A stretch of DNA of 39,370 bases from a virus. Taxonomy: Duplodnaviria > Caudoviricetes. Within the stretch, counting starts at the first letter, position 1. Each line of letters begins with the position of its first letter. Both the position numbers and the translations under genes were made by a program. The DNA lies in IMG/VR virus record IMGVR_UViG_3300047561_000389, positions 1 to 39,370 of that record, one strand, 5' to 3'. Below are positions 7,855-21,644 of this stretch, one piece after another. Under the pieces are notes generated by a model that did not search any database, had not been told where the DNA came from, and saw nothing but the letters and a program-made list of their open reading frames with translations.

Positions 7855-8729
7855 TGCCCTGCTGCCTCTCGCCACTCATCTATCGGTGTATAACTACCAT
7901 CGTAACCGTTACGTACATCTTTACCTAGCATTGTCCCGTACGCGTCTTTGTCAGAGATCTGACAAGCAGCATAGTTGGCTACCAAGGTTACATAATCAGA
8001 AGCATCTGCTGTGTGCTTACCAAAGCGGTTCTTCACCGCTGCGATATTAAGATCACCACTGGCTGGGTCAAAGCCTAGCGTTAGGATTAACGCTGGCAAC
8101 TGACTGACCTTACCGTGGATAGCACGTCTGGCTGGTGGTCTAGTAGGTGAACCATACTCAGACTGTTCAGAGACGTGATGCAGTACCAGTACACAGGCTT
8201 CGGTCTTGCGTGCCATATCGTGAAGCTCCATCATAATTGCACGCAAGCCTGCCCATTCATTATCTGTCTCTGCTGCTACGTTCATTAAGTTATCTATAAC
8301 AATAAGTTCTGGAGCAATGCCATAGAGTTCAACGTATGCCTTGATCTCCAACTCGATATCATCGAGTGACGGACTAGAGTCAAAGACCCACTTGATATGA
8401 GTTAACTTCTCAAAGTGTTTGTCATAGTAATGGGAGTTGTTAGATAGGTTCTGTTCAACTGTTACCTGGTTGTGACCAGATGTATGTGCAGCAGAGCGCA
8501 ACATTACTGTTGCTGTGTCGGTATCTGCTGAGAAGAACAACGTAGGTACTTTTGCTCTGATGCTGTACACCAAAGCAAACATCGACTTACCTACGTTGGG
8601 CGCAGCAGCTACCATACACACTTGCCCTCGTCGGAACTTGATCTGTTTAGGTACAAGATCTTTCCATACATCAGGTAGAGGTGTTGCTTTGGTGAGGACT
8701 GTTCCCCACGCACGCTGTAAGCTAAGCAT
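7851..8729 (-). CDS. DnaB-like (SF4) replicative helicase
   Basis: Walker A AAPNVGKS, Walker B IVIDNL, LHH, AVKNRFG motif. Confidence 0.85.
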   Translation of the reverse strand: MLSLQRAWGTVLTKATPLPDVWKDLVPKQIKFRRGQVCMVAAAPNVGKSMFALVYSIRAKVPTLFFSADTDTATVMLRSAAHTSGHNQVTVEQNLSNNSHYYDKHFEKLTHIKWVFDSSPSLDDIELEIKAYVELYGIAPELIVIDNLMNVAAETDNEWAGLRAIMMELHDMARKTEACVLVLHHVSEQSEYGSPTRPPARRAIHGKVSQLPALILTLGFDPASGDLNIAAVKNRFGKHTADASDYVTLVANYAACQISDKDAYGTMLGKDVRNGYDGSYTPIDEWREAAGQ

Positions 8730-8982
8730 TAAACTCCCCAAATGGAATAACGATACCTCGTTCTTTACGAATCCTTGTTCTCTTGCCGTGGGTTAATCCA
8801 CCCCAGACACCAAAGCGTTCGTTCTTAATTCCCCACTCAGCACACTCGGATTTGTGTACACATTTACCACACAGAGATAAAATCATAGGCATCTCTGGTG
8901 GGTACTCAGCTTCTGGTGGGTAAAATAATTCTGTGTCTATTCCCCTACAGCGTGGGTCTTCAAAGTTCCAAGGCCCTCGCAC
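8722..8982 (-). CDS. whiB: WhiB family Fe-S transcriptional regulator
   Basis: C...ELFYP...CGKCVHKSEC...FGVWGGLT: four Cys plus G[IV]WGG turn. Confidence 0.95.
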   Translation of the reverse strand: MRGPWNFEDPRCRGIDTELFYPPEAEYPPEMPMILSLCGKCVHKSECAEWGIKNERFGVWGGLTHGKRTRIRKERGIVIPFGEFNA

Positions 8983-10615: not shown

Positions 10616-11170
10616 TTATATCCTCTCCTGGATCTCTAACTGTATGGGTGGGCTGGTATTGATGTCAAGAACCGACGCGATCTTTACTGCTTTTTCTGCA
10701 GCTATCTTTGCCATCTCAGGTGTCCTGTACATTTTCTTATCCAAGCTGTACAAGAAACCCAGTGCATAGTTACCGCCTGAGCCATTGGCAAAGAGGCCAC
10801 GCTCACTAGTGTTAAAGGATAAGTCCCCGCCTATAGAGAACAGGTTGGCATCGAAGGACACAAGGAAAGCAAAGTTCATTTCCTTCTGGTCTGGTTCATA
10901 GTTATTTTCTTTGAACGCAACTGACATACTAGGCAGCAGCTTTGCACCCATAAATTTCACAGGATCTTCACCACGATACAACGGAGGTTTCCACGAATAC
11001 GCAAGGATATCTCCTGGACGTGAGTCACCAGTAAGACCTAATAGGTATTTACCTACCCAGATTATCTTGGGAGTTTCGATTGAAATGATGCGTTGATCGC
11101 CGTCAGTGATCTGCGAATCAGCTCCCATTACTACAAAGTCTGAACCTTGTACGCCTACTAGTGTTGTCAT
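10616..11170 (-). CDS. Proteasome beta-subunit/HslV-like Ntn threonine protease
   Basis: N-terminal MTT, ADSQIT, PKI (Lys33 equivalent), GLTG, ANGSGGNYALG, C-terminal D.NT. Confidence 0.85.
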   Translation of the reverse strand: MTTLVGVQGSDFVVMGADSQITDGDQRIISIETPKIIWVGKYLLGLTGDSRPGDILAYSWKPPLYRGEDPVKFMGAKLLPSMSVAFKENNYEPDQKEMNFAFLVSFDANLFSIGGDLSFNTSERGLFANGSGGNYALGFLYSLDKKMYRTPEMAKIAAEKAVKIASVLDINTSPPIQLEIQERI

Positions 11171-11839: not shown

Positions 11840-12340
11840 CTAGTCTTTGAACTTCGGCGTACCGAATCCAACGATGTACACTGGCAACTTCTTCTTATTG
11901 TCAGTGATGTACGCACGTGTTTTCTGAACTACTTCTCCACCATTGCGCTCTGATGAAGACTTCTTTTTATCTCCAGATGTGTTACCTTCAATAGTGGTAA
12001 CTGTTCCATCTTGGTTATCTCTAACCACAATACCTACGTGATCTATTGGGTTACCGCCTTCTGCAAAATCAAAGAAGGCTAAGTCTCCAGGCTTTGGCTT
12101 GGCAGTGGCAGCGTTACTCCAACCACCAGTACCCTTAAACTTCTCAGCTCCAACAGATGTACTTACGACATTTGGGATTTTAAGACCAACCTGATGAGCA
12201 CACCACATAACAAAACTGCCGCACCAAGGTAGGAAATTAGCCTTAGTAAACGCGCCATACTTTGTTTCATTGTCCTTTGGTCCTTCGACTGTTCCGATTT
12301 CTGCACGTGCTGCCATTAAGAATTGATTGCGCTGGCTCAT
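11840..12340 (-). CDS. Endolysin, CHAP/NlpC-P60 amidase-peptidase
   Basis: PWCGSFV (Cys), PGDL.FFD, DHVGIV (His), TIEGNT. Confidence 0.9.
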   Translation of the reverse strand: MSQRNQFLMAARAEIGTVEGPKDNETKYGAFTKANFLPWCGSFVMWCAHQVGLKIPNVVSTSVGAEKFKGTGGWSNAATAKPKPGDLAFFDFAEGGNPIDHVGIVVRDNQDGTVTTIEGNTSGDKKKSSSERNGGEVVQKTRAYITDNKKKLPVYIVGFGTPKFKD

Positions 12341-12588
12341 TATGCCTCCAGCTTTGTCTTGATAATTGCTTGGTTGATACGAAGTTCAGTAATCTCTATA
12401 CATAGTTCATTGATCTGATCCTTCATAGACCCGCCACCGTTCTCATACAACTGGTATTCAATGCGGTCTAACCTGCGGTTCATCTTGCTAAAGAATTTAT
12501 AGGCTGCAGTAAAGATAACTGCTGTTTCGCAAAATGCCCAGATACCTGAGAACAATAAGCTGCCATTACTAAGAAGCATAGAAGTCAT
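12340..12588 (-). CDS. Lysis-cassette membrane protein
   Basis: N-terminal TM followed by coiled coil with NGGGSMKD motif; coupled to the endolysin. Confidence 0.65.
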   Translation of the reverse strand: MTSMLLSNGSLLFSGIWAFCETAVIFTAAYKFFSKMNRRLDRIEYQLYENGGGSMKDQINELCIEITELRINQAIIKTKLEA

Positions 12589-12589
12589 A

Positions 12590-14767
12590 TCACGCCGTTC
12601 TGATTGTGACTAGTAGCAAGCCTCCATAGCCGGAGTATCGCTTATCGGTAGGTGTCTTGTTAATAAAGTCCATCTCTTCAATTAAACCAAGGTATGACTC
12701 ACCAGTACGGAAGTCTTCTACCTTGATTAAGTCTCCAAGGTTTTCAATGCCTTGCATATTAAGCAAGCGGTCATAAGCCCCGCCTTCATAACCTGCTGGG
12801 TTATTAAACTTATCCATCTCACTGTCGTAGAGTTCTACTGGGTATTGAATCAAACGCTGACGCGGAATAGAAGGCAGTACTCGTACTTGGTATCCAGTAA
12901 AGAGTGGACCTTGAGATGTATTAGTAGTTGATCTACTCATTTCAAACTTAAAGCCTAGATACTGCTGAGGTGTAGCAGGGTATGGAATACCGATCTGGGT
13001 AATGTCTGCACCTTGGTCAAAGGAACCGATCTTGTATTGGTTACCTTCTGCATCGATAGAATAGATGTTAAGTGCGCCATTAGCTGCGTCATAGCGTGGC
13101 TGTAAGAACTTAAAGATCTTGTTCTCAAGCGTGTTGTAACGGATATAACCAGTACGCATTGTGCCCAATGGTGTCAATCGTGTGGCTGTTTCAATGTAGT
13201 TCTTACCATTGGTCGTACCATTGTTAGCAGTACAAAATGCTAGGCGTGCAGTGTTACCTACAAAAGAACAAGAGGTAGTAATAAAGCCAGTGGTATCTGG
13301 ATCATATAGATCCCAAGCATAAGCAAATACTAAATTGCTACCTACTTGTTGACCTAAGTCAACGCGAGTAACTCCAGGTGCGCCATCTACATTTGTAGTA
13401 CACCATAGATATTTGTCGTAACCTGCTACGTCATAGACTGGTTGATCTGTTTCAAAGATAAGTGGGCCATACGCTAAAGATCCATCTGTAGCAGATACAT
13501 CTGCAATACGTAGACCTAGGCTAGTTCCAATAGCCATATAGCCAAGGTAGTAATAGATGCGAAATGCAATCTCTCCTACTGGTAGTTCAGCTGCGGTTAT
13601 TGCGCTAGTCAGCGTAGGCATAGCACCGGCTGTGGTCAGTGTAAACTTCTGAATGGTTGATTGGATACCGTTGTAACCTGCAAGGTAGATAGCAGCACCG
13701 CTAGATGTAATGCTGGTGTAAACAAAGTCAGTATTAGGATGGCTATAGACTGCAGTAGGTAACGCACTGGCAGTAGTAGCAAACTCATAGACCGAGTTAT
13801 TAACTGCCATAACAAGACGTTCTTTAGTAAACTCAATAACAGCGTTAGTTGCTGTGATACCAGTAGCATTAAACATCAAGGTATCTGCAGTAGTTGAATC
13901 ACCAATCAACGGCTTTTTGTAAACGTGGATCTTGTTAGCACCACCTGATGTCTTGTTAGTTACCCAATAAGCATAGGTTCCATCGTCACAGATAGCATAA
14001 ACTGGGTCATCTACACCTGCTGTGTAATCAACAAAGTGAGTTAACTTACCACCCACATCGATCTTATCTACATCGTATTGATCCCATAGAAGTACTGAGT
14101 CCTGAGTTACACGACCTGTTGCTGCTACTGATGTAACGTTAGTTGCAGTCTTAGCATAGGAAATAGTTGTTGCTGCAACTGCAGTCAGTACATAGGTACC
14201 ATTAAAGGTAGCGTCAATGTTATCTACATTGATAGTAGAACCAACAGTTAAAAGGTGTGTACCAATGGTAAGGGTTGCTACATTTGTAGTAAGCGCCTTA
14301 TTAGTAACAGTCCAGCTTGGTCTAATAGAGCGCATAATCTGTAATGGACGCTTATTGTTCTGCAAGTTACCAGTTGTAAAGTGGTAGTTATCTACATCTT
14401 TAAGAAGCGTTGCCTGTCCCTTGGTCCAAACATCTAAGCCTTTGCTGAAAGTAAACTGAAAGCGGAGGGATTCATCTTGTTGTGGTTCAAAGAACTTGAT
14501 ACCTTGACCAAGGTGGAAGCTAGACTGTGATCGTAGCCACCAACCAGTAAGCGTTTGCTCACCTGGCTCACGGCTCATATCAACTTGATTCTTACGGTAC
14601 TGGGCAGTTACACGACGATAAGGTGTTTCATCACTTGTGGTTAAGAAGAACGGAATACCACCAAAAGATACATCGTAGGCAATACCGGTTCCTGCGTAAG
14701 TCTGTGAACCTGCTGGGTTGGACAGTGCATAGGGAATTGCATCCGTGATGTCATCGCCATAGGCCAT
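12590..14767 (-). CDS. Tail protein (probable tail tubular B/nozzle, beta-rich)
   Basis: 725 aa, beta-propeller-like composition, position in the tail module. Confidence 0.6.
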   Translation of the reverse strand: MAYGDDITDAIPYALSNPAGSQTYAGTGIAYDVSFGGIPFFLTTSDETPYRRVTAQYRKNQVDMSREPGEQTLTGWWLRSQSSFHLGQGIKFFEPQQDESLRFQFTFSKGLDVWTKGQATLLKDVDNYHFTTGNLQNNKRPLQIMRSIRPSWTVTNKALTTNVATLTIGTHLLTVGSTINVDNIDATFNGTYVLTAVAATTISYAKTATNVTSVAATGRVTQDSVLLWDQYDVDKIDVGGKLTHFVDYTAGVDDPVYAICDDGTYAYWVTNKTSGGANKIHVYKKPLIGDSTTADTLMFNATGITATNAVIEFTKERLVMAVNNSVYEFATTASALPTAVYSHPNTDFVYTSITSSGAAIYLAGYNGIQSTIQKFTLTTAGAMPTLTSAITAAELPVGEIAFRIYYYLGYMAIGTSLGLRIADVSATDGSLAYGPLIFETDQPVYDVAGYDKYLWCTTNVDGAPGVTRVDLGQQVGSNLVFAYAWDLYDPDTTGFITTSCSFVGNTARLAFCTANNGTTNGKNYIETATRLTPLGTMRTGYIRYNTLENKIFKFLQPRYDAANGALNIYSIDAEGNQYKIGSFDQGADITQIGIPYPATPQQYLGFKFEMSRSTTNTSQGPLFTGYQVRVLPSIPRQRLIQYPVELYDSEMDKFNNPAGYEGGAYDRLLNMQGIENLGDLIKVEDFRTGESYLGLIEEMDFINKTPTDKRYSGYGGLLLVTIRTA

Positions 14768-14777
14768 TGCTTACTCC

Positions 14778-15578
14778 TTATTCTAAAAGGTTCACTAACG
14801 ATCTAGTGCGACCTTGTGATAACTGTGTGTAAATCTGAGTTGTAGCCACACTTGTGTGGCGCATAAGTTCTTTAACGGCAATCAAATCTCCGCCTGATTT
14901 TTCAAGCATTGTCGTTGCAAAGTAATGACGCAGACTGTGAAAATGCTTAGCGTCTGGTCCTAAGATGCGACGCATCTCATTGGCTGCTCTAGCTGATAAC
15001 TTATTAGGCGTTACCTGCCATAGCCTGCCAAGCGTGCTGTATGACCTAATCATATCTGAGACTATTGGTGATATTGGAACAATCAGGTCTGTGCCACCTT
15101 TGCCCTGTACTCGCAATGAGTACCCATCTTCGTGCTCTATTAGATCTGAGCCTTTGATGTTGGCTACTTCCATAGCACGAAGACCAGCTGTACCACCCAA
15201 GATAAACCAATCGTGGATCAGCTTGTTCTTGGCTTCTGCCAGCAACTTCTGGTATTCACCCTTGGTTACAGGCTTAGGTACACCGCGCCCTGGCTTGACC
15301 TGTGGCAGGCTTTCAGCAGGGTTATGACCATTGACAAGGTTCATCTTGTTCAGGGCCTTGTAGATACTCCTCAGACGGGCTACGTAAGTAGCCTTAGTAG
15401 ACTGCCTTGTGGCTTGGAGTACCACCCGTTCTAGGTCCTCATAAGAGGCTAGAGCAGGGTGGACACCCAATCGTCTAATGATCTGCATATCTTGCTTGAA
15501 CAGCTGCTCCGAGAACCCGCTAGTGCGGTATCTGTTGTGAAGCTGTTCGGCTATCTGTTCTAGTGGTATGAGTTCCAT
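14778..15578 (-). CDS. Tyrosine recombinase (XerC/D-like, no arm-binding domain)
   Basis: Catalytic set GLR, GKG, HSLRH, RH, TQIY all present; 266 aa. Confidence 0.95.
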   Translation of the reverse strand: MELIPLEQIAEQLHNRYRTSGFSEQLFKQDMQIIRRLGVHPALASYEDLERVVLQATRQSTKATYVARLRSIYKALNKMNLVNGHNPAESLPQVKPGRGVPKPVTKGEYQKLLAEAKNKLIHDWFILGGTAGLRAMEVANIKGSDLIEHEDGYSLRVQGKGGTDLIVPISPIVSDMIRSYSTLGRLWQVTPNKLSARAANEMRRILGPDAKHFHSLRHYFATTMLEKSGGDLIAVKELMRHTSVATTQIYTQLSQGRTRSLVNLLE

Positions 15579-15594
15579 ACCCTAGATGATAGCA
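15579..15594 (-). promoter_or_regulatory. Extended -10 leaderless promoter of the recombinase
   Basis: Minus strand TGC-TATCAT-N7-ATG; no SD. Confidence 0.55.
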
Positions 15595-15595
15595 C

Positions 15596-15712
15596 CTAAA
15601 TGGTGGGATTCGGTGTGGATTGTTCCGCTTTGTAATTGCAATAAGTACGTTTTGCTTGAATAAATAAAGTAAATGCAATTGCTGCAATTAAAAGATATTC
15701 ATATTTAGTCAT
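15596..15712 (-). CDS. Cassette micro-ORF, 38 aa (MTKYEYLLIAAIAFTLFIQAKRTYCNYKAEQSTPNPTI)
   Basis: Hand-translated. Purine-rich RBS AAGGTAGAG, hydrophobic helix; reads through repeat copy 1 in the same frame as the upstream gene reads through copy 2. Confidence 0.55.
   Translation of the reverse strand: MTKYEYLLIAAIAFTLFIQAKRTYCNYKAEQSTPNPTI
15611..15630. repeat. 20-bp direct repeat copy 1 (putative recombination site)
   Basis: CGGTGTGGATTGTTCCGCTT, identical to 15753-15772; internal dyad GTGGA-N4-TCCGC. Confidence 0.9.
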
Positions 15713-15716
15713 AGTT

Positions 15717-15881
15717 TTACTCTACCTTATCTATTTTAACAGCATTGATTAGCGGTGTGGATTGTTCCGCTTGTCGGCGGTCGTATTCTGCCTTCGTCAT
15801 TGACTCGGCTTTATTGTTGATTTCATCAACAATTAAAACCATTTCAACGCCATCTGTGTTTGTGTAATTTTCAAGTGTCAT
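15717..15881 (-). CDS. Small tail-fibre-associated protein (possible chaperone), 54 aa
   Basis: MTLENYTNTDG...SMTKAEYDRRQAEQSTP...; starts immediately after the fibre stop codon. Confidence 0.7.
   Translation of the reverse strand: MTLENYTNTDGVEMVLIVDEINNKAESMTKAEYDRRQAEQSTPLINAVKIDKVE
15753..15772. repeat. 20-bp direct repeat copy 2 (putative recombination site)
   Basis: CGGTGTGGATTGTTCCGCTT, identical to 15611-15630; encodes AEQSTP on the minus strand. Confidence 0.9.
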
Positions 15882-15882
15882 T

Positions 15883-17157
15883 TTATAACTCCGCAACGAA
15901 TCCGAGATAAGCATTATTTGTGGCATTTGCCCCTGCGACTCCACCTTGACCAACTACCAAACCAAGAGCAGTTGTGTATTTGATTAAACAAGATTCCCAG
16001 CCCGAATTATCAAGAACAGGAACCGCACTATTTGTCGAAACAGTGTTACCAGTCAAAATACGATAATCAGCAGCGGTACCACTTGTTTCAAGAGAAGTAG
16101 GATTTACTCTCATTGTTACTGGTAACTTTATAGTTCCGAAAGCAATGGTTGTAGAATAAACAAAAACACTTTGGATGTAAGAGTTAGCGTTACCACCTGT
16201 TGTCCAACGATAGTAATACCTCTGACAAGCGGCTAATTCTCCTTGAAATGTTGCCCCAGCGCGTGAGAATTGTGTGGCAATAGCACCAACCTCAATCTGT
16301 ACGCCAGTTACTTCAAAGTAATCATTTGCCCCAGCAGTGCCAGTTGGTGAGTAAGCAAAATAAGGCGTGAATTCTGTGACAGTTGAACCTAATGTAATTG
16401 TGCTTTGAAACCGTTGCCAAGTAGTTGTCAAAGTGACATTTGTGTCAATGGGTGTTGCTTGTCCAGCATAAGCAACAAATGGGTTCTGGTCTGTACCAGT
16501 ACCAGTAAATAATGCTGCGCGCATTAAATTAGATGTTGCAGAAAAATTAGCACCTGCGCGTGCATAATAGGAAAAGGTAATAGTTTTGCCAACATACGGA
16601 ATTGTGTTAGTAGTTTCGATTGGTGAACCAATGTCGGTTGTGGTCGTACTTGTAGAACCTGAATTCCGTTGCACTCTTGCGCAGTATTGAACAAATGGCA
16701 GATTGGTTGTGTCGCCTGTTACTTGTCGGCTAATTGTTCGCGCTGACATTGTTCCGCCAAACCAGCGGTCAGCGGTATAAACACTTCCTGTTGTAAATGA
16801 AGTACCGCGTTGCCAAATGTCAAAACCGCCATTGACAACTGCGTTTTTGCCAGCAGCCATTGAACCTTGATAGCGCAAACCTGTTGAGGTGGAAGAATCT
16901 GCTACAAGAGTTTCGCCATTGTTGCCTACTGCTAGGCGGTCATTGGTAGTTGAGTAGGTATAGAGATCACCCTTGGTTGTAAGAGGTGACAGATTAGCTG
17001 CATAAGCTAATGCTGTCCAGGCTGTAGAACCTGTACCTATCTTGAATTTATTGGTATCGCTCTCAAACCCGATTTCACCAGCAGCCAATGTTGGGTTGGT
17101 GGAAGTCCAGGTTGCAGCAGTACCACGTCTTGTCTGAATCTGTGTCTGTACAGCCAT
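15883..17157 (-). CDS. Tail fibre / receptor-binding protein (Mtd-N-like anchor plus carbohydrate-binding-like C-terminus)
   Basis: IQTRRGTAATW...GEIGFESDT.KFKIG.G..W anchor; TTKGDL..RLAVG linker; N..NGGFDIWQRG, GVQIEVG and ELAACQRYY motifs. Confidence 0.8.
   Translation of the reverse strand: MAVQTQIQTRRGTAATWTSTNPTLAAGEIGFESDTNKFKIGTGSTAWTALAYAANLSPLTTKGDLYTYSTTNDRLAVGNNGETLVADSSTSTGLRYQGSMAAGKNAVVNGGFDIWQRGTSFTTGSVYTADRWFGGTMSARTISRQVTGDTTNLPFVQYCARVQRNSGSTSTTTTDIGSPIETTNTIPYVGKTITFSYYARAGANFSATSNLMRAALFTGTGTDQNPFVAYAGQATPIDTNVTLTTTWQRFQSTITLGSTVTEFTPYFAYSPTGTAGANDYFEVTGVQIEVGAIATQFSRAGATFQGELAACQRYYYRWTTGGNANSYIQSVFVYSTTIAFGTIKLPVTMRVNPTSLETSGTAADYRILTGNTVSTNSAVPVLDNSGWESCLIKYTTALGLVVGQGGVAGANATNNAYLGFVAEL
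16889..16903. other. Third putative recombinase site with a different core, inside the tail fibre gene
   Basis: GTGGA-AGAA-TCTGCT versus GTGGA-TTGT-TCCGCT in the repeats; lies at the VADSST linker just before the distal domain. Confidence 0.5.
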
Positions 17158-17203
17158 TAGTTATTTCCTTCTTTGTTAGTTGCCGGTGTATTTAGTTGTG
17201 TCA

Positions 17204-17584
17204 TTACGGCGTACCGCCGTCAATAGTTGGTGTACCAGGAGCTGCTACTGAACTCTGGATAGCATTGTTAAAGTAAGTAAGGTCATTACTGGTCAGTACG
17301 TGTCTGACCGTTGCACCTGATGCGTGGGTAATGTTTGATGAACCTGCACGACCACGGACAATTGTGAAGGTATCACCTGAGTTAGCGGTGATAAAGACGA
17401 TCTCTTCGTTAGTAGTATCAGGATCGATAGCCACTGTAAATTGATCGACGTTGCCTGCAGCAAGCGTCACACCACCTAGAAGGGCTGCGCCAGTACCAGT
17501 TGATACAGCTATTGATGTCTGCGAACTGGTAATAGCAGCAGATAAGATTGTTTCTACTGAGATACTTGAATATAACCGAGTCAT
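17204..17584 (-). CDS. Virion structural protein (tail/fibre adaptor)
   Basis: EEIV...TIVRG..G....H..GA.V.H motif; ends IDGGTP. Confidence 0.65.
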   Translation of the reverse strand: MTRLYSSISVETILSAAITSSQTSIAVSTGTGAALLGGVTLAAGNVDQFTVAIDPDTTNEEIVFITANSGDTFTIVRGRAGSSNITHASGATVRHVLTSNDLTYFNNAIQSSVAAPGTPTIDGGTP

Positions 17585-17593
17585 AGGTTTTCC

Positions 17594-18496
17594 TTATTTG
17601 GTGTAGTGAACGCGGATCGGGAAGCGGTCTTGTAACTTAACTGACTCTTCTTGCAGACGTTGCTGGTAAAGAGCAAAGATATATTTAGAAGCAGAAGCAC
17701 CAGCAGTTGAAGGCAACTTAGTATCTGCTAGATCTGCTTCGGCGCTGGATAGGTTGATGCGACCTGTATCAATGTAAGACAGGAGTCTGTATGCAGCTCC
17801 AAGAGTAACGACATCTCTTGACGATTCTGGTAGGCCTGTAACAGTAGCAAAGTCATCACTGTTGTTAGTGAGGTTATTTGGGATAATGGAATAATAGACT
17901 TGGACCGTACGACCAGGGACAATCTTGTCATAGATATTCACCGTCTTAGTAGTGTTGAACGCAGATACATTTGCCATACGGTCAATGCGCCAACGATTAG
18001 TTGGTAGCCATTCCCTTGATGGTCCAGGTGTTTGCCAAGAAATAAACAATACGTCTCTAGTGTCATCTGGTAATGGGTAAGCAATCTGTGCTGCGTTGTA
18101 CTGGAATGTTGTAACTGCTACGCCAAACAACTTTGGATACAGTGAGTTGATCGTATCGTTGAGTGCTTGTCGAATCATTGTTACTGGGAAAGTTGGAGTT
18201 AAAATTACCTGAGCAAGTTCTGCGTGTGGGCTTGGTGTAGTTCCCATATAACCACGACCAAAGCCTGGGGCTACGTTAAGTGTAAGGTTTTGCTTATCAA
18301 AGGAGTTAACCCAAATAAGTTCGTTATCAATCTGGACGATACCTTTAGCAAGGTTATCTGCTGAACCGATCTTGATGGTCAGCGCAGTAGCTGAGATGCC
18401 GCCTGTTGAGGCAAGCCAAGTAATGCGGTCTTGACGAAGTGTGTAACCCTGTAGGTTACTTTGGACTTCGCTTACTAGTTGTCCCAGATTTGGCAT
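17594..18496 (-). CDS. Tail tubular A / head-tail adaptor-like protein
   Basis: 300 aa, QALNDTI...YPLP.D pattern with an inserted IDNELI..RG.GT..H domain; position in the tail module. Confidence 0.6.
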   Translation of the reverse strand: MPNLGQLVSEVQSNLQGYTLRQDRITWLASTGGISATALTIKIGSADNLAKGIVQIDNELIWVNSFDKQNLTLNVAPGFGRGYMGTTPSPHAELAQVILTPTFPVTMIRQALNDTINSLYPKLFGVAVTTFQYNAAQIAYPLPDDTRDVLFISWQTPGPSREWLPTNRWRIDRMANVSAFNTTKTVNIYDKIVPGRTVQVYYSIIPNNLTNNSDDFATVTGLPESSRDVVTLGAAYRLLSYIDTGRINLSSAEADLADTKLPSTAGASASKYIFALYQQRLQEESVKLQDRFPIRVHYTK

Positions 18497-19538
18497 CTAT
18501 TTTGCTCCTGTAGAACGTTACGTTGGTTTGTAATCTTTCATCATCAGGCGATATTTCTAACGCTTTGATTCCGTGCTCAAGTGCAGTTGGGTAATCACCC
18601 AGTTGCCAACTTGATACTGCTATTAGATCGTGAGCCATATGAGTCCACGCCCAGTTCTCCGATAAGAAGCCCATAGGTCTTTCGTTGAACTCCAGTGCCT
18701 TCTTAGCCACAAGCAAGCACTCAGGCCATTGTTGTGTTTTGTAATAATGATGAGCAAGTCCTAATACAGATTCACGGTTAGCGTGTTCTTCTGTACCTTT
18801 GATTAACCACTCTTCTGCCATATTAGGTTCGCAAAAAGATAATGTTCTGCAGGCTGCACTGCGTTCTTCTGGAAAGACTGAGATAGTCAAGTATGCTTTA
18901 AGCATCTTGGCTGCTTCATCAAATCTTTTGTAATAAAAGTATTCTCTACCTAAGTAGTAAGAGTTGCGAGCATCAGGGTTTTCTTTAACTGCCATCTCTA
19001 GCATCTCTAAGTACTGTGCTCTGGACTTAGCTTTATCTTGGCGGTGATGGATTTCTAATCCTGATACTTCGCCTTTGATTTCTTCACGCTCTGAGTCCCA
19101 GTGTGGCACTTCGTGGATAGGATACTTCCACCGTACATCTTTGCGTCTATGAATCTTAAACCCATTAAATTCTAGGTTTGCACTGCCATCTTCATTGAAA
19201 GCCTCAATGCGACGATAATGTGGTCTATCAATACTAGGGTCAATCTTCTCTAGGGCTTCTCGCCAACCAGGAGTTAACTCTTCATCCATATCCAAAGCGA
19301 TGCAGTAATCTACATCAGCTGGTAGTAATGCTAGCGATGCGTTCCGAGCATCGTCGAATCTAAATGGCGAAACAAATATCTCGTAAACCGTAATGCCAAG
19401 ACTTCGTGCAATCTCAATGGTTCTATCTGTTGATCCTGTATCTGCAATGAGGAGATAGTCTGCGTCTTTACAAGACTCATACCATCGTTCAACGTGTTTC
19501 TCCTCGTTTAATGCAATCGTGTATACGGCTATCTTCAT
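18456..19538 (-). CDS. GT2-family glycosyltransferase with TPR repeats
   Basis: IALNEE, DTGSTD, FDDARN, LDMDE (DxD), IHE, then YYLGREY TPR-like helices. Confidence 0.9.
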   Translation of the reverse strand: MKIAVYTIALNEEKHVERWYESCKDADYLLIADTGSTDRTIEIARSLGITVYEIFVSPFRFDDARNASLALLPADVDYCIALDMDEELTPGWREALEKIDPSIDRPHYRRIEAFNEDGSANLEFNGFKIHRRKDVRWKYPIHEVPHWDSEREEIKGEVSGLEIHHRQDKAKSRAQYLEMLEMAVKENPDARNSYYLGREYFYYKRFDEAAKMLKAYLTISVFPEERSAACRTLSFCEPNMAEEWLIKGTEEHANRESVLGLAHHYYKTQQWPECLLVAKKALEFNERPMGFLSENWAWTHMAHDLIAVSSWQLGDYPTALEHGIKALEISPDDERLQTNVTFYRSKIDAKSGTTSKRSPK

Positions 19539-20113
19539 TTGTACCAACTCATATAATCAACATCTTCTAACATCAGATCTGAGTAACTTGGATACTGCTT
19601 AACCATTGGTGGCTTTGCAGCATATGATCTGTACTGGCGATGTAACAATCTATAAGCAACATCTATATGCTCTGGGTAATCTCTACCTTGTTCTAGTGCA
19701 ATCTCCTTGAACTCAGGATTTACACAGTAAGCGTGTAGTGATGATGTATCCATTGCTCTAACCATTATGTCGTTGCAACGCTCACTGTTAAGTAGCACTG
19801 CGCCTAGATAAAAGATGTGCCAGTCTTTAGGTAGTAGTTCAATGAACTCAGTAAAGCGTTCATTAAAGCCTTCCATAAAGTAAGCATCATCTTCTAGGAT
19901 GAGCGTCTTACCTACTGAATCTTCTAGCACTCGGATGTGGCTTTGTTTACAAGCCTGTATTGGATCTATGCCCAATTCCTTAGCATCTATTGCGCTAAAT
20001 CTTTCATAGGTAATACCCAGCTCTTGTAACTGGGCATCAACCTTTTCTAGTCTATCTTTCCTGCGGTCTAGGTTTATCACCACGACCTTATCAAAGTATT
20101 CATTAACCTTCAT
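19535..20113 (-). CDS. GT25-family glycosyltransferase
   Basis: VINLDRRKDR, RFSAID, CKQSH, LILEDD, HAY, ID motifs. Confidence 0.9.
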   Translation of the reverse strand: MKVNEYFDKVVVINLDRRKDRLEKVDAQLQELGITYERFSAIDAKELGIDPIQACKQSHIRVLEDSVGKTLILEDDAYFMEGFNERFTEFIELLPKDWHIFYLGAVLLNSERCNDIMVRAMDTSSLHAYCVNPEFKEIALEQGRDYPEHIDVAYRLLHRQYRSYAAKPPMVKQYPSYSDLMLEDVDYMSWYK

Positions 20114-20125
20114 AGGCTTAGCCTA

Positions 20126-21644
<1,519 letters not shown>

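Follow-up and report, generated by a model that had tools for sequence, protein, structure and literature searches.

The virus record IMGVR_UViG_3300047561_000389 (39,370 bp, 98% complete; the whole stretch is called the window below) encodes an arm-less tyrosine recombinase within its tail module, next to a tail-fibre gene whose tip modules are bounded by short dyad sites, and this set of enzyme, sites and modules is the subject of our analysis. All features of the locus described here lie on the minus strand. The recombinase gene (14778-15578) specifies 266 amino acids (aa) that match PF00589 above the cut-off (E=5.8e-16), and the intact XerC/D-like recombinase that a first-pass annotation had reported between two tail genes is thus indeed present. 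Residues R134, K160, H214, R217, H241 and Y250, which we take to be the catalytic residues of tyrosine recombinases, are invariant in all 24 aligned members of the family, for which 430 relatives were retrieved at E<=0.001 and 650 stretches are estimated in IMG/VR. Profile matches include XerD, XerA and the Gp33 structure; in the comparison with integrons, the match to IntI4 was limited to the C-terminal stretch 204-251.

The tail-fibre gene (15883-17157; phrog_4492, E=2.4e-38) encodes a protein of 424 aa, composed of an Mtd_N anchor (aa 7-45), a CBM-like domain (approximately aa 99-296) and a C-terminal beta domain (approximately aa 313-424). A structure model of residues 70-424 (predicted local distance difference test 83.7) contains two beta domains, and the two sites located inside the gene, called A and C below, fall in low-confidence linkers at the domain edges. 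The module between them (16270-16863) is predicted to form a CBM4-like beta-sandwich, its model matching the CBM4-2 structure 4bj0_A (Z 16.7, root-mean-square deviation 2.6, 158 aligned residues), and may bind sugar. The fibre gene is followed by a partner gene of 54 aa (15717-15881), which has no Pfam or PHROG match and is recognized by its position past fibre genes ending in AEL or SAEL across relatives; its product is possibly a chaperone.

Dyad sites in and around the fibre gene

The sites are 28 bp long and have a dif-like structure, with an 11-bp arm of consensus GYGGAACWATC (which we take to be unlike the arms of dif), a 6-bp spacer and a weaker, mirrored 11-bp arm. They fall into three spacer classes: A (GTAGCA) in the linker between anchor and tip, C (CAAGGA) between the fibre domains and B (CACACC), present in two copies, past the partner gene. 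Site A (16889-16916, spacer 16900-16905; GCGAAACTCTT-GTAGCA-GATTCTTCCAC) has its consensus-like arm inverted relative to B and C. Site C (16229-16256, spacer 16240-16245; GGGCAACATTT-CAAGGA-GAATTAGCCGC) encodes GATFQGELAA, the linker between the two tip domains. Site B2 (15743-15770, spacer 15754-15759; GCGGAACAATC-CACACC-GCTAATCAATG) lies at the end of the partner gene that encodes AEQSTP, and site B1 (15601-15628, spacer 15612-15617; GCGGAACAATC-CACACC-GAATCCCACCA) upstream of the recombinase gene.

The first-pass annotation had described three copies of a motif GTGGA-N4-TCYGCT, and these were all recovered (15615-15629, 15757-15771 and 16889-16903), the first two within a perfect 20-bp repeat (15611-15630 and 15753-15772); the estimate of how often three copies would arise by chance is circular, the pattern having been derived from those same sites. 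The motif copies do encode VADSST and AEQSTP, and the motifs of A and B had been placed correctly, but the register of the sites was wrong and the third class, site C, had been missed. It also proved right that the classes differ in their central sequence, the spacers being those given above, but not that TTGT and AGAA are the cores: both lie inside an 11-bp arm and vary among relatives (TAGT 41 versus TTCT 7 among the matches), and they are best read as arm polymorphisms. A register of 5-bp arms and a 4-bp core was rejected, since these cores are not constant within one class and move together with the cassette. The 11-6-11 register ranks first among 729 for both B and C and fifth among 729 for A, where the centre proposed earlier ranks first; judged by the arm symmetry of site A alone, that centre scores slightly better (6.41 against 6.04 of 11). 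In tallies for which many loci were found through the motifs themselves, the spacers are nearly constant (GTAGCA 91/106, CAAGGA 161/174, CACACC 120/124), and the commonest arms are the reverse arm GTGGAACTATC for A (72/106) and GCGGAACAATC for both B (92/124) and C (29/174).

A similar arrangement was found in 80 loci with recombinases 69-94% identical, in which the AEQSTP motif (B) precedes the start codon of the recombinase gene by about 50 nt, the VADSST motif (A) being found roughly 1.2 kb upstream. In the fibre, the motif of site C coincides with GTIQGELAA, and its DNA variants are those of B, read in another frame. One arm motif recurs across different reading frames, in both orientations and in non-coding DNA, and in sister clades it occurs past stop codons. 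Sister clades at 55-66% identity present near-perfect, non-coding dyads of the same geometry (e.g., AGCACAATC-CTGTGC-GATTGTGCT). A dyad test that made no use of the motif (8/9 matches) detected dyads in 13/15 and 6/11 loci of two sister clades, best at spacer 4 and on the same axis, and in 2/59 loci of the clade of the window, whose arms are imperfect. A further near-perfect non-coding dyad (AACACTC-CATTGG-GAGTGT) lies upstream of the recombinase gene in the clade L407-L419, past tail genes of other types.

As the first-pass annotation had predicted, the sites are conserved as DNA: synonymous codons are frozen at A and C but vary freely in neighbours of equal conservation. Among loci chosen through the recombinase only, the codons of site C (50 sequences) are CAA in 48/50, GAA in 47/50 and GCC in 47/47, whereas neighbouring codons are split between TGT and TGC (28/22) and between TAC and TAT (25/25); the core codons of site A (37 sequences) are GTA in 36/37, GAT in 37/37 and TCC in 34/34. 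This freezing rules out conservation of the motif as a peptide only. A p value of 2e-8 for codon freezing was not counted, because its loci had been picked by DNA motifs, which makes it circular.

The sites are also linked to the enzyme: a site is present within 170 nt upstream of the recombinase gene in 150 of 157 distinct loci, compared with 11 of 627 control windows, for a pattern built after inspection, and the variants of arm and spacer differ from clade to clade. No second site was evident by eye at the 3' end of the recombinase gene.

The attachment site attP often lies directly upstream of an integrase gene. The position of site B directly upstream of the recombinase gene would thus suit an arm-less integrase using site B as attP for a host attB, or alternatively an enzyme resolving genome dimers, and the nearest named relatives, mycobacteriophage integrases (30-35% identity) and the Gp33 structure, point in the same direction. 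We nevertheless consider this highly improbable. The best relative in bacterial genomes has only 35% identity (12 of 64 parts of the genome contigs searched), and no repressor was recognized among the open reading frames (ORFs) scanned, which upholds the earlier remark on its absence for that part of the 107 listed ORFs. Like sites are present inside the fibre gene, integration leaves sites A and C unexplained, and complete relatives lacking the enzyme exist. Among GenBank phages, the best relative reaches 35.5% identity. A prophage search (0/301 genomes of one order) and a search for the site in three genomes (0/3) are uninformative, the host itself being a matter of conjecture.

Module diversity and inversion in a sister clade

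The interval between the outer sites had been proposed to be a swappable cassette of 1.1 kb, and it is indeed bounded by sites and hypervariable, but it consists of two modules split by site C. The 98 A-C segments form 88 clusters and the 118 C-B segments 104 clusters, in narrow size ranges (600-750 and 406-753 nt, respectively); four A-C rows (L008/L143 and L019/L094/L224) were dropped, since they set the same contigs against each other with their flanks cut short. Modules are reassorted at site C: the C-B segments of L001 and L006 are 100% identical next to left flanks of 49% identity, and those of L057 and L058 are 99.8% identical next to left flanks of 52%. L070 and L138 have C-B segments 93% alike with both flanks different. 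No near copy of the modules of the window itself was found in 434 loci (duplicates included), the best full-length matches being 66-67%. The backbones vary as well, the gene following the recombinase gene in the 59 loci of the window's clade being of four types and 13 of these loci lying in long-tailed-type backbones. In-frame inserts were observed in two fibre genes, one of 108 bp in L012, bounded by two C sites 108 nt apart, and one in L334, bounded by two A-like sites 144 nt apart. Across relatives, at least four unrelated genes are found downstream of the recombinase gene (the region of 14778-14822 in the window), suggesting that the recombinase gene itself moves between backbones.

Identity between related loci breaks at the sites, in agreement with the first-pass prediction. 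At site A (77 pairs), the left arm tracks the backbone (0.89 versus a background of 0.70) whereas the right arm does not (0.914 versus 0.916); at site B (164 pairs), it is the right arm that tracks the backbone (0.95 versus 0.54) and the left arm that does not (0.911 versus 0.903). The A spacer is constant within each of 18 backbone groups (79 sequences). In four further, independent runs compared at 92% likeness, of which three contribute more than two contigs to the region, coverage heaps at sites B, C and A and drops to little or nothing in between, and loose contig ends fall at 15610 and 15753, as well as at 15754 elsewhere; X1, possibly the source itself, was excluded from the count.

Traces of rearrangement were found in a sister clade, retrieved with a 56%-identical recombinase as query. 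Its loci (12 displayed) carry tips without anchor, mostly inverted, each of which begins at a GTAGCG spacer and ends at a dyad with another spacer. A cassette of 732 bp that is expressed in L372 recurs at 100% identity in L368, silent and in inverted orientation, and the identity ends at the A-type spacer; this is the sole inverted match of the kind among 65 loci. Since the outer arms of the silent and expressed sites differ, site-specific recombination fits this pair better than homology does. BLAST end points in the shufflon clades are uninformative (4/20 at sites, the other 16 elsewhere and most of those 21-68 nt off in shared linkers). The same recombinase family thus uses related sites in an inversion shufflon, and the claim that the system is distinct from invertase shufflons could not be maintained. 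Multi-cassette tip shufflons lie 1-3 kb upstream of the recombinase gene in L346, L347, L352, L361, L367, L368, L372, L377, L380, L383, L399 and L405, with the terminal spacer classes TCAGAG, TTGAGG, GCTAAC, GTGTGC and TCTAAG and in backbones of short- and long-tailed type.

The window carries one A site, and silent inverted tips were not found in its clade, where 7/59 loci had reverse-strand matches to a loose 8-nt pattern, none extending as a cassette. Inversion was therefore rejected for this clade, and the lack of silent tips implies that exchange in it must take place between molecules, probably between genomes. The spacers of A and C co-vary, as if in separate pools, among 125 fibres (GTAGCA with CAAGGA in 106, GTCGCG with CAAGGC in seven, GTAGCC with CAAGGG in five), although shared ancestry may lie behind part of this co-variation. 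In tandem fibres, the paired A sites have different spacers in 16 cases and the same spacer in seven, six of these seven in shufflons, and the paired C sites have different spacers in seven cases and the same in two.

A proposed mechanism of exchange and its alternatives

In engineered cassette exchange with heterospecific lox/FRT sites (34-bp sites, 8-bp spacer), unlike spacers block self-recombination and permit a double crossover. The model that we favour follows the same spacer rule, although the engineered tool is not a natural phage system. From the sequence comparisons, we consider it fairly probable that the adjacent recombinase swaps tip modules between co-infecting phage genomes at sites with like spacers. 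The enzyme would bind the sites and recombine like spacers only. One crossover between like sites (A-A, C-C or B-B) would fuse a pair of genomes; a further crossover, at sites of a different class, would separate them again, by then with the module in between exchanged. Through this pair of crossovers, one tip module or both would be replaced in frame. Unlike spacers would protect each genome against deletion or inversion of its own tip, and phages that have sites without the enzyme would be served in trans. Such exchange would presumably take place in co-infected cells and alter host range.

Site B1 would probably double as an operator for the recombinase promoter. An extended -10-like element (TG-n-TATCAT, 15586-15594), 7 nt 5' of the recombinase ATG, marks a predicted leaderless promoter, over whose -35 region site B1 extends. 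In the window's clade, TAnnnT is present 5-7 nt ahead of the start codon in 59/59 loci (a count without shuffle control); the position of this -10-like hexamer suggests a leaderless transcript. The promoter scan gave nothing exceeding chance. In the shufflon clade L346-L405, the last dyad adjoins a TTGACA upstream of the recombinase gene, suggesting autorepression.

As an alternative, homologous or microhomology recombination between conserved linkers could be what swaps the tips, in which case the sites would be only shufflon relics or operators and the enzyme would not act as an exchanger in this clade. The phage itself encodes a RusA-like resolvase and a PD-(D/E)XK nuclease, and conserved motifs around the receptor-binding domains of lytic coliphages, 63-81% identical, have been proposed as hotspots of homologous recombination, with no enzyme involved according to the portion of PMC10408124 consulted. 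A number of our results tell against exchange by the recombinase, and several of them would be expected from homology. Although nearly every recombinase has a site, as the predicted co-occurrence requires, most sites have no recombinase nearby: it lies within 2.4 kb in only 6 of 56 distinct site-C loci (site B being kept in 42 of the other 50), it is absent from 28 of 68 site-B loci, and two complete genomes with sites, G002 and G006, lack it (the positive control was found). Either action in trans is needed or homology is favoured. With group-weighted, protein-defined A sites (4 groups), the linkage to the backbone still covers the first 7 nt of the right arm, and in a fuller set variation rises gradually over six zones (ratios of 0.05, 0.14, 0.21, 0, 0.31 and 0.45). 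Block changes, i.e. two or more, affect the left arm in 9/79 sequences, and right-arm changes occur in 24/79; the former point to some crossovers upstream of the spacer, and exchange thus maps to the sites, but in some cases not to the spacer. L111, a fragment without the enzyme, has two cassettes whose spacers are identical, and in six shufflon loci A spacers are directly repeated next to the recombinase gene, which indicates that unlike spacers are not always needed. Finally, just two recombinant triplets were found, with wide intervals, the pairs compared lack independence, and a single lineage supplies most of the tandem A-A' pairs. Neither circles nor cointegrates were seen, nor any product of a double crossover together with its two parents.

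Homology leaves several other results without explanation, namely the presence of one arm motif in all three site classes despite their differing frames and orientations, the dyad geometry and the spacer pools, and the silent cassettes in the sister clade, which cease to match the expressed anchor at a 6-bp spacer. Unlike the coliphage motifs (PMC10408124), the sites described here form a defined dyad with spacers fixed by class, and a recombinase is linked to them. We therefore regard homologous recombination as a rather unlikely source of the tip swaps, and exchange by the recombinase remains our preferred reading.

The 142-bp unit between B2 and B1 bears on another possibility, integron-like exchange in which the enzyme would draw on excised circles that do not replicate, or on a separate reservoir of cassettes, and not on whole genomes. 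This unit contains an AT-rich ORF of 38 aa (15596-15712; unit 34% GC) without Pfam match, and at the same position L012 has a different ORF of 56 aa in a B-to-B unit of 178 bp (-228 to -17 upstream of the recombinase gene), both units beginning with a GCTAA right arm. Possibly, these are micro-cassettes added at B, and the C-to-C insert of L012 would also suit excised circles. However, the window and L012 have the only two B-B units among the 434 loci, and the tip module, whose A, C and B spacers differ, cannot be excised by recombination between like spacers. No circular junction was seen in eight runs of contigs, which cannot show circles, or their absence, or expression. We judge an exchange through circles very improbable.

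A broader view, which we put forward tentatively, is that freshwater actinophages with unrelated tails share an open library of tip domains, with a recombinase carried by a minority of genomes that would act in trans in co-infected cells and swap individual protein domains in frame, using three mutually orthogonal 28-bp sites. Separate pools might then be defined by synonymous variants of the spacer, and the enzyme family might alternate between open exchange and closed shufflon.

Known systems and the setting of the virus

The closest known systems are the Rin shufflon and the pdif modules of Acinetobacter. In the Rin shufflon of Bifidobacterium and Eggerthella prophages, as in the window, a phage-encoded arm-less tyrosine recombinase lies beside a receptor-binding gene, with one site in the gene at the boundary between constant and variable parts and another past its 3' end, corresponding to A and B here (PMC6109161 and PMC8778435). 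According to the same papers, Rin uses one asymmetric 11-bp rix sequence and stores silent tips in cis, inverted, in temperate phages. The sister clade L346-L405 has this layout, with silent inverted tips and inverted site copies in cis, neither of which is seen in the window. Unlike Rin as described there, the clade of the window has 28-bp dyads, three spacer classes, no silent tips and a second site within the tip, and most carriers lack the enzyme.

In Acinetobacter, pdif sites have 6-bp spacers that must be identical or nearly so, and single modules are replaced via a cointegrate and its resolution at a second site pair (PMC13141974, in part), which is the mechanism proposed here, at tyrosine-recombinase sites that also have 6-bp spacers. 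The same source describes host XerC/XerD acting on dif arms that flank whole genes on plasmids, whereas the present locus has a phage-encoded enzyme and two in-frame sites inside a structural gene. Its sites have the geometry of pdif and class-fixed spacers, among which like would recombine with like, but it lacks the host Xer arms and, lying in a phage, the plasmid setting. We conclude that the feature is real, belongs with the Rin-type phage recombinases and would work like pdif replacement. A search of the literature, confined to main texts and with few subscription journals among its sources, found no published account of this system.

Swaps of receptor-binding domains at fixed boundaries are common in phages and usually credited to homology hotspots, with no enzyme named in the portion of PMC10408124 consulted. 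Here a candidate enzyme, its site and the spacer classes are all defined, so that a plasmid assay can test the question. If correct, our reading would explain how lake actinophages renew their host-recognition domains across tail types and would make domain-level cassette exchange a shared resource, and the recombinase (266 aa), together with its many naturally occurring spacer variants, could be offered to genome engineering.

The window also contains capsid, portal, terminase and SU10 adaptor genes. A WhiB gene (8722-8982) indicates that the virus is an actinophage, WhiB being a marker according to the first part of PMC10202952, in which no recombinase is mentioned. The listed sequencing runs containing the region are mostly of freshwater origin, and our guess at the host is Nanopelagicales. 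As regards diversity-generating retroelements, no reverse transcriptase was found among the ORFs scanned, no long repeats were listed in 12000-20000, and the Mtd_N match covers the fibre anchor only. Elsewhere in the window, a gene at 10616-11170 encodes a proteasome-subunit-like protein (PF00227, E=1.7e-7, residues 2-44), and two glycosyltransferases (GT2 with TPR, and GT25) and a collagen-repeat protein are encoded within the structural module (18456-21307). The collagen protein and the product of 17204-17584 share the terminal peptide IDGGTP.

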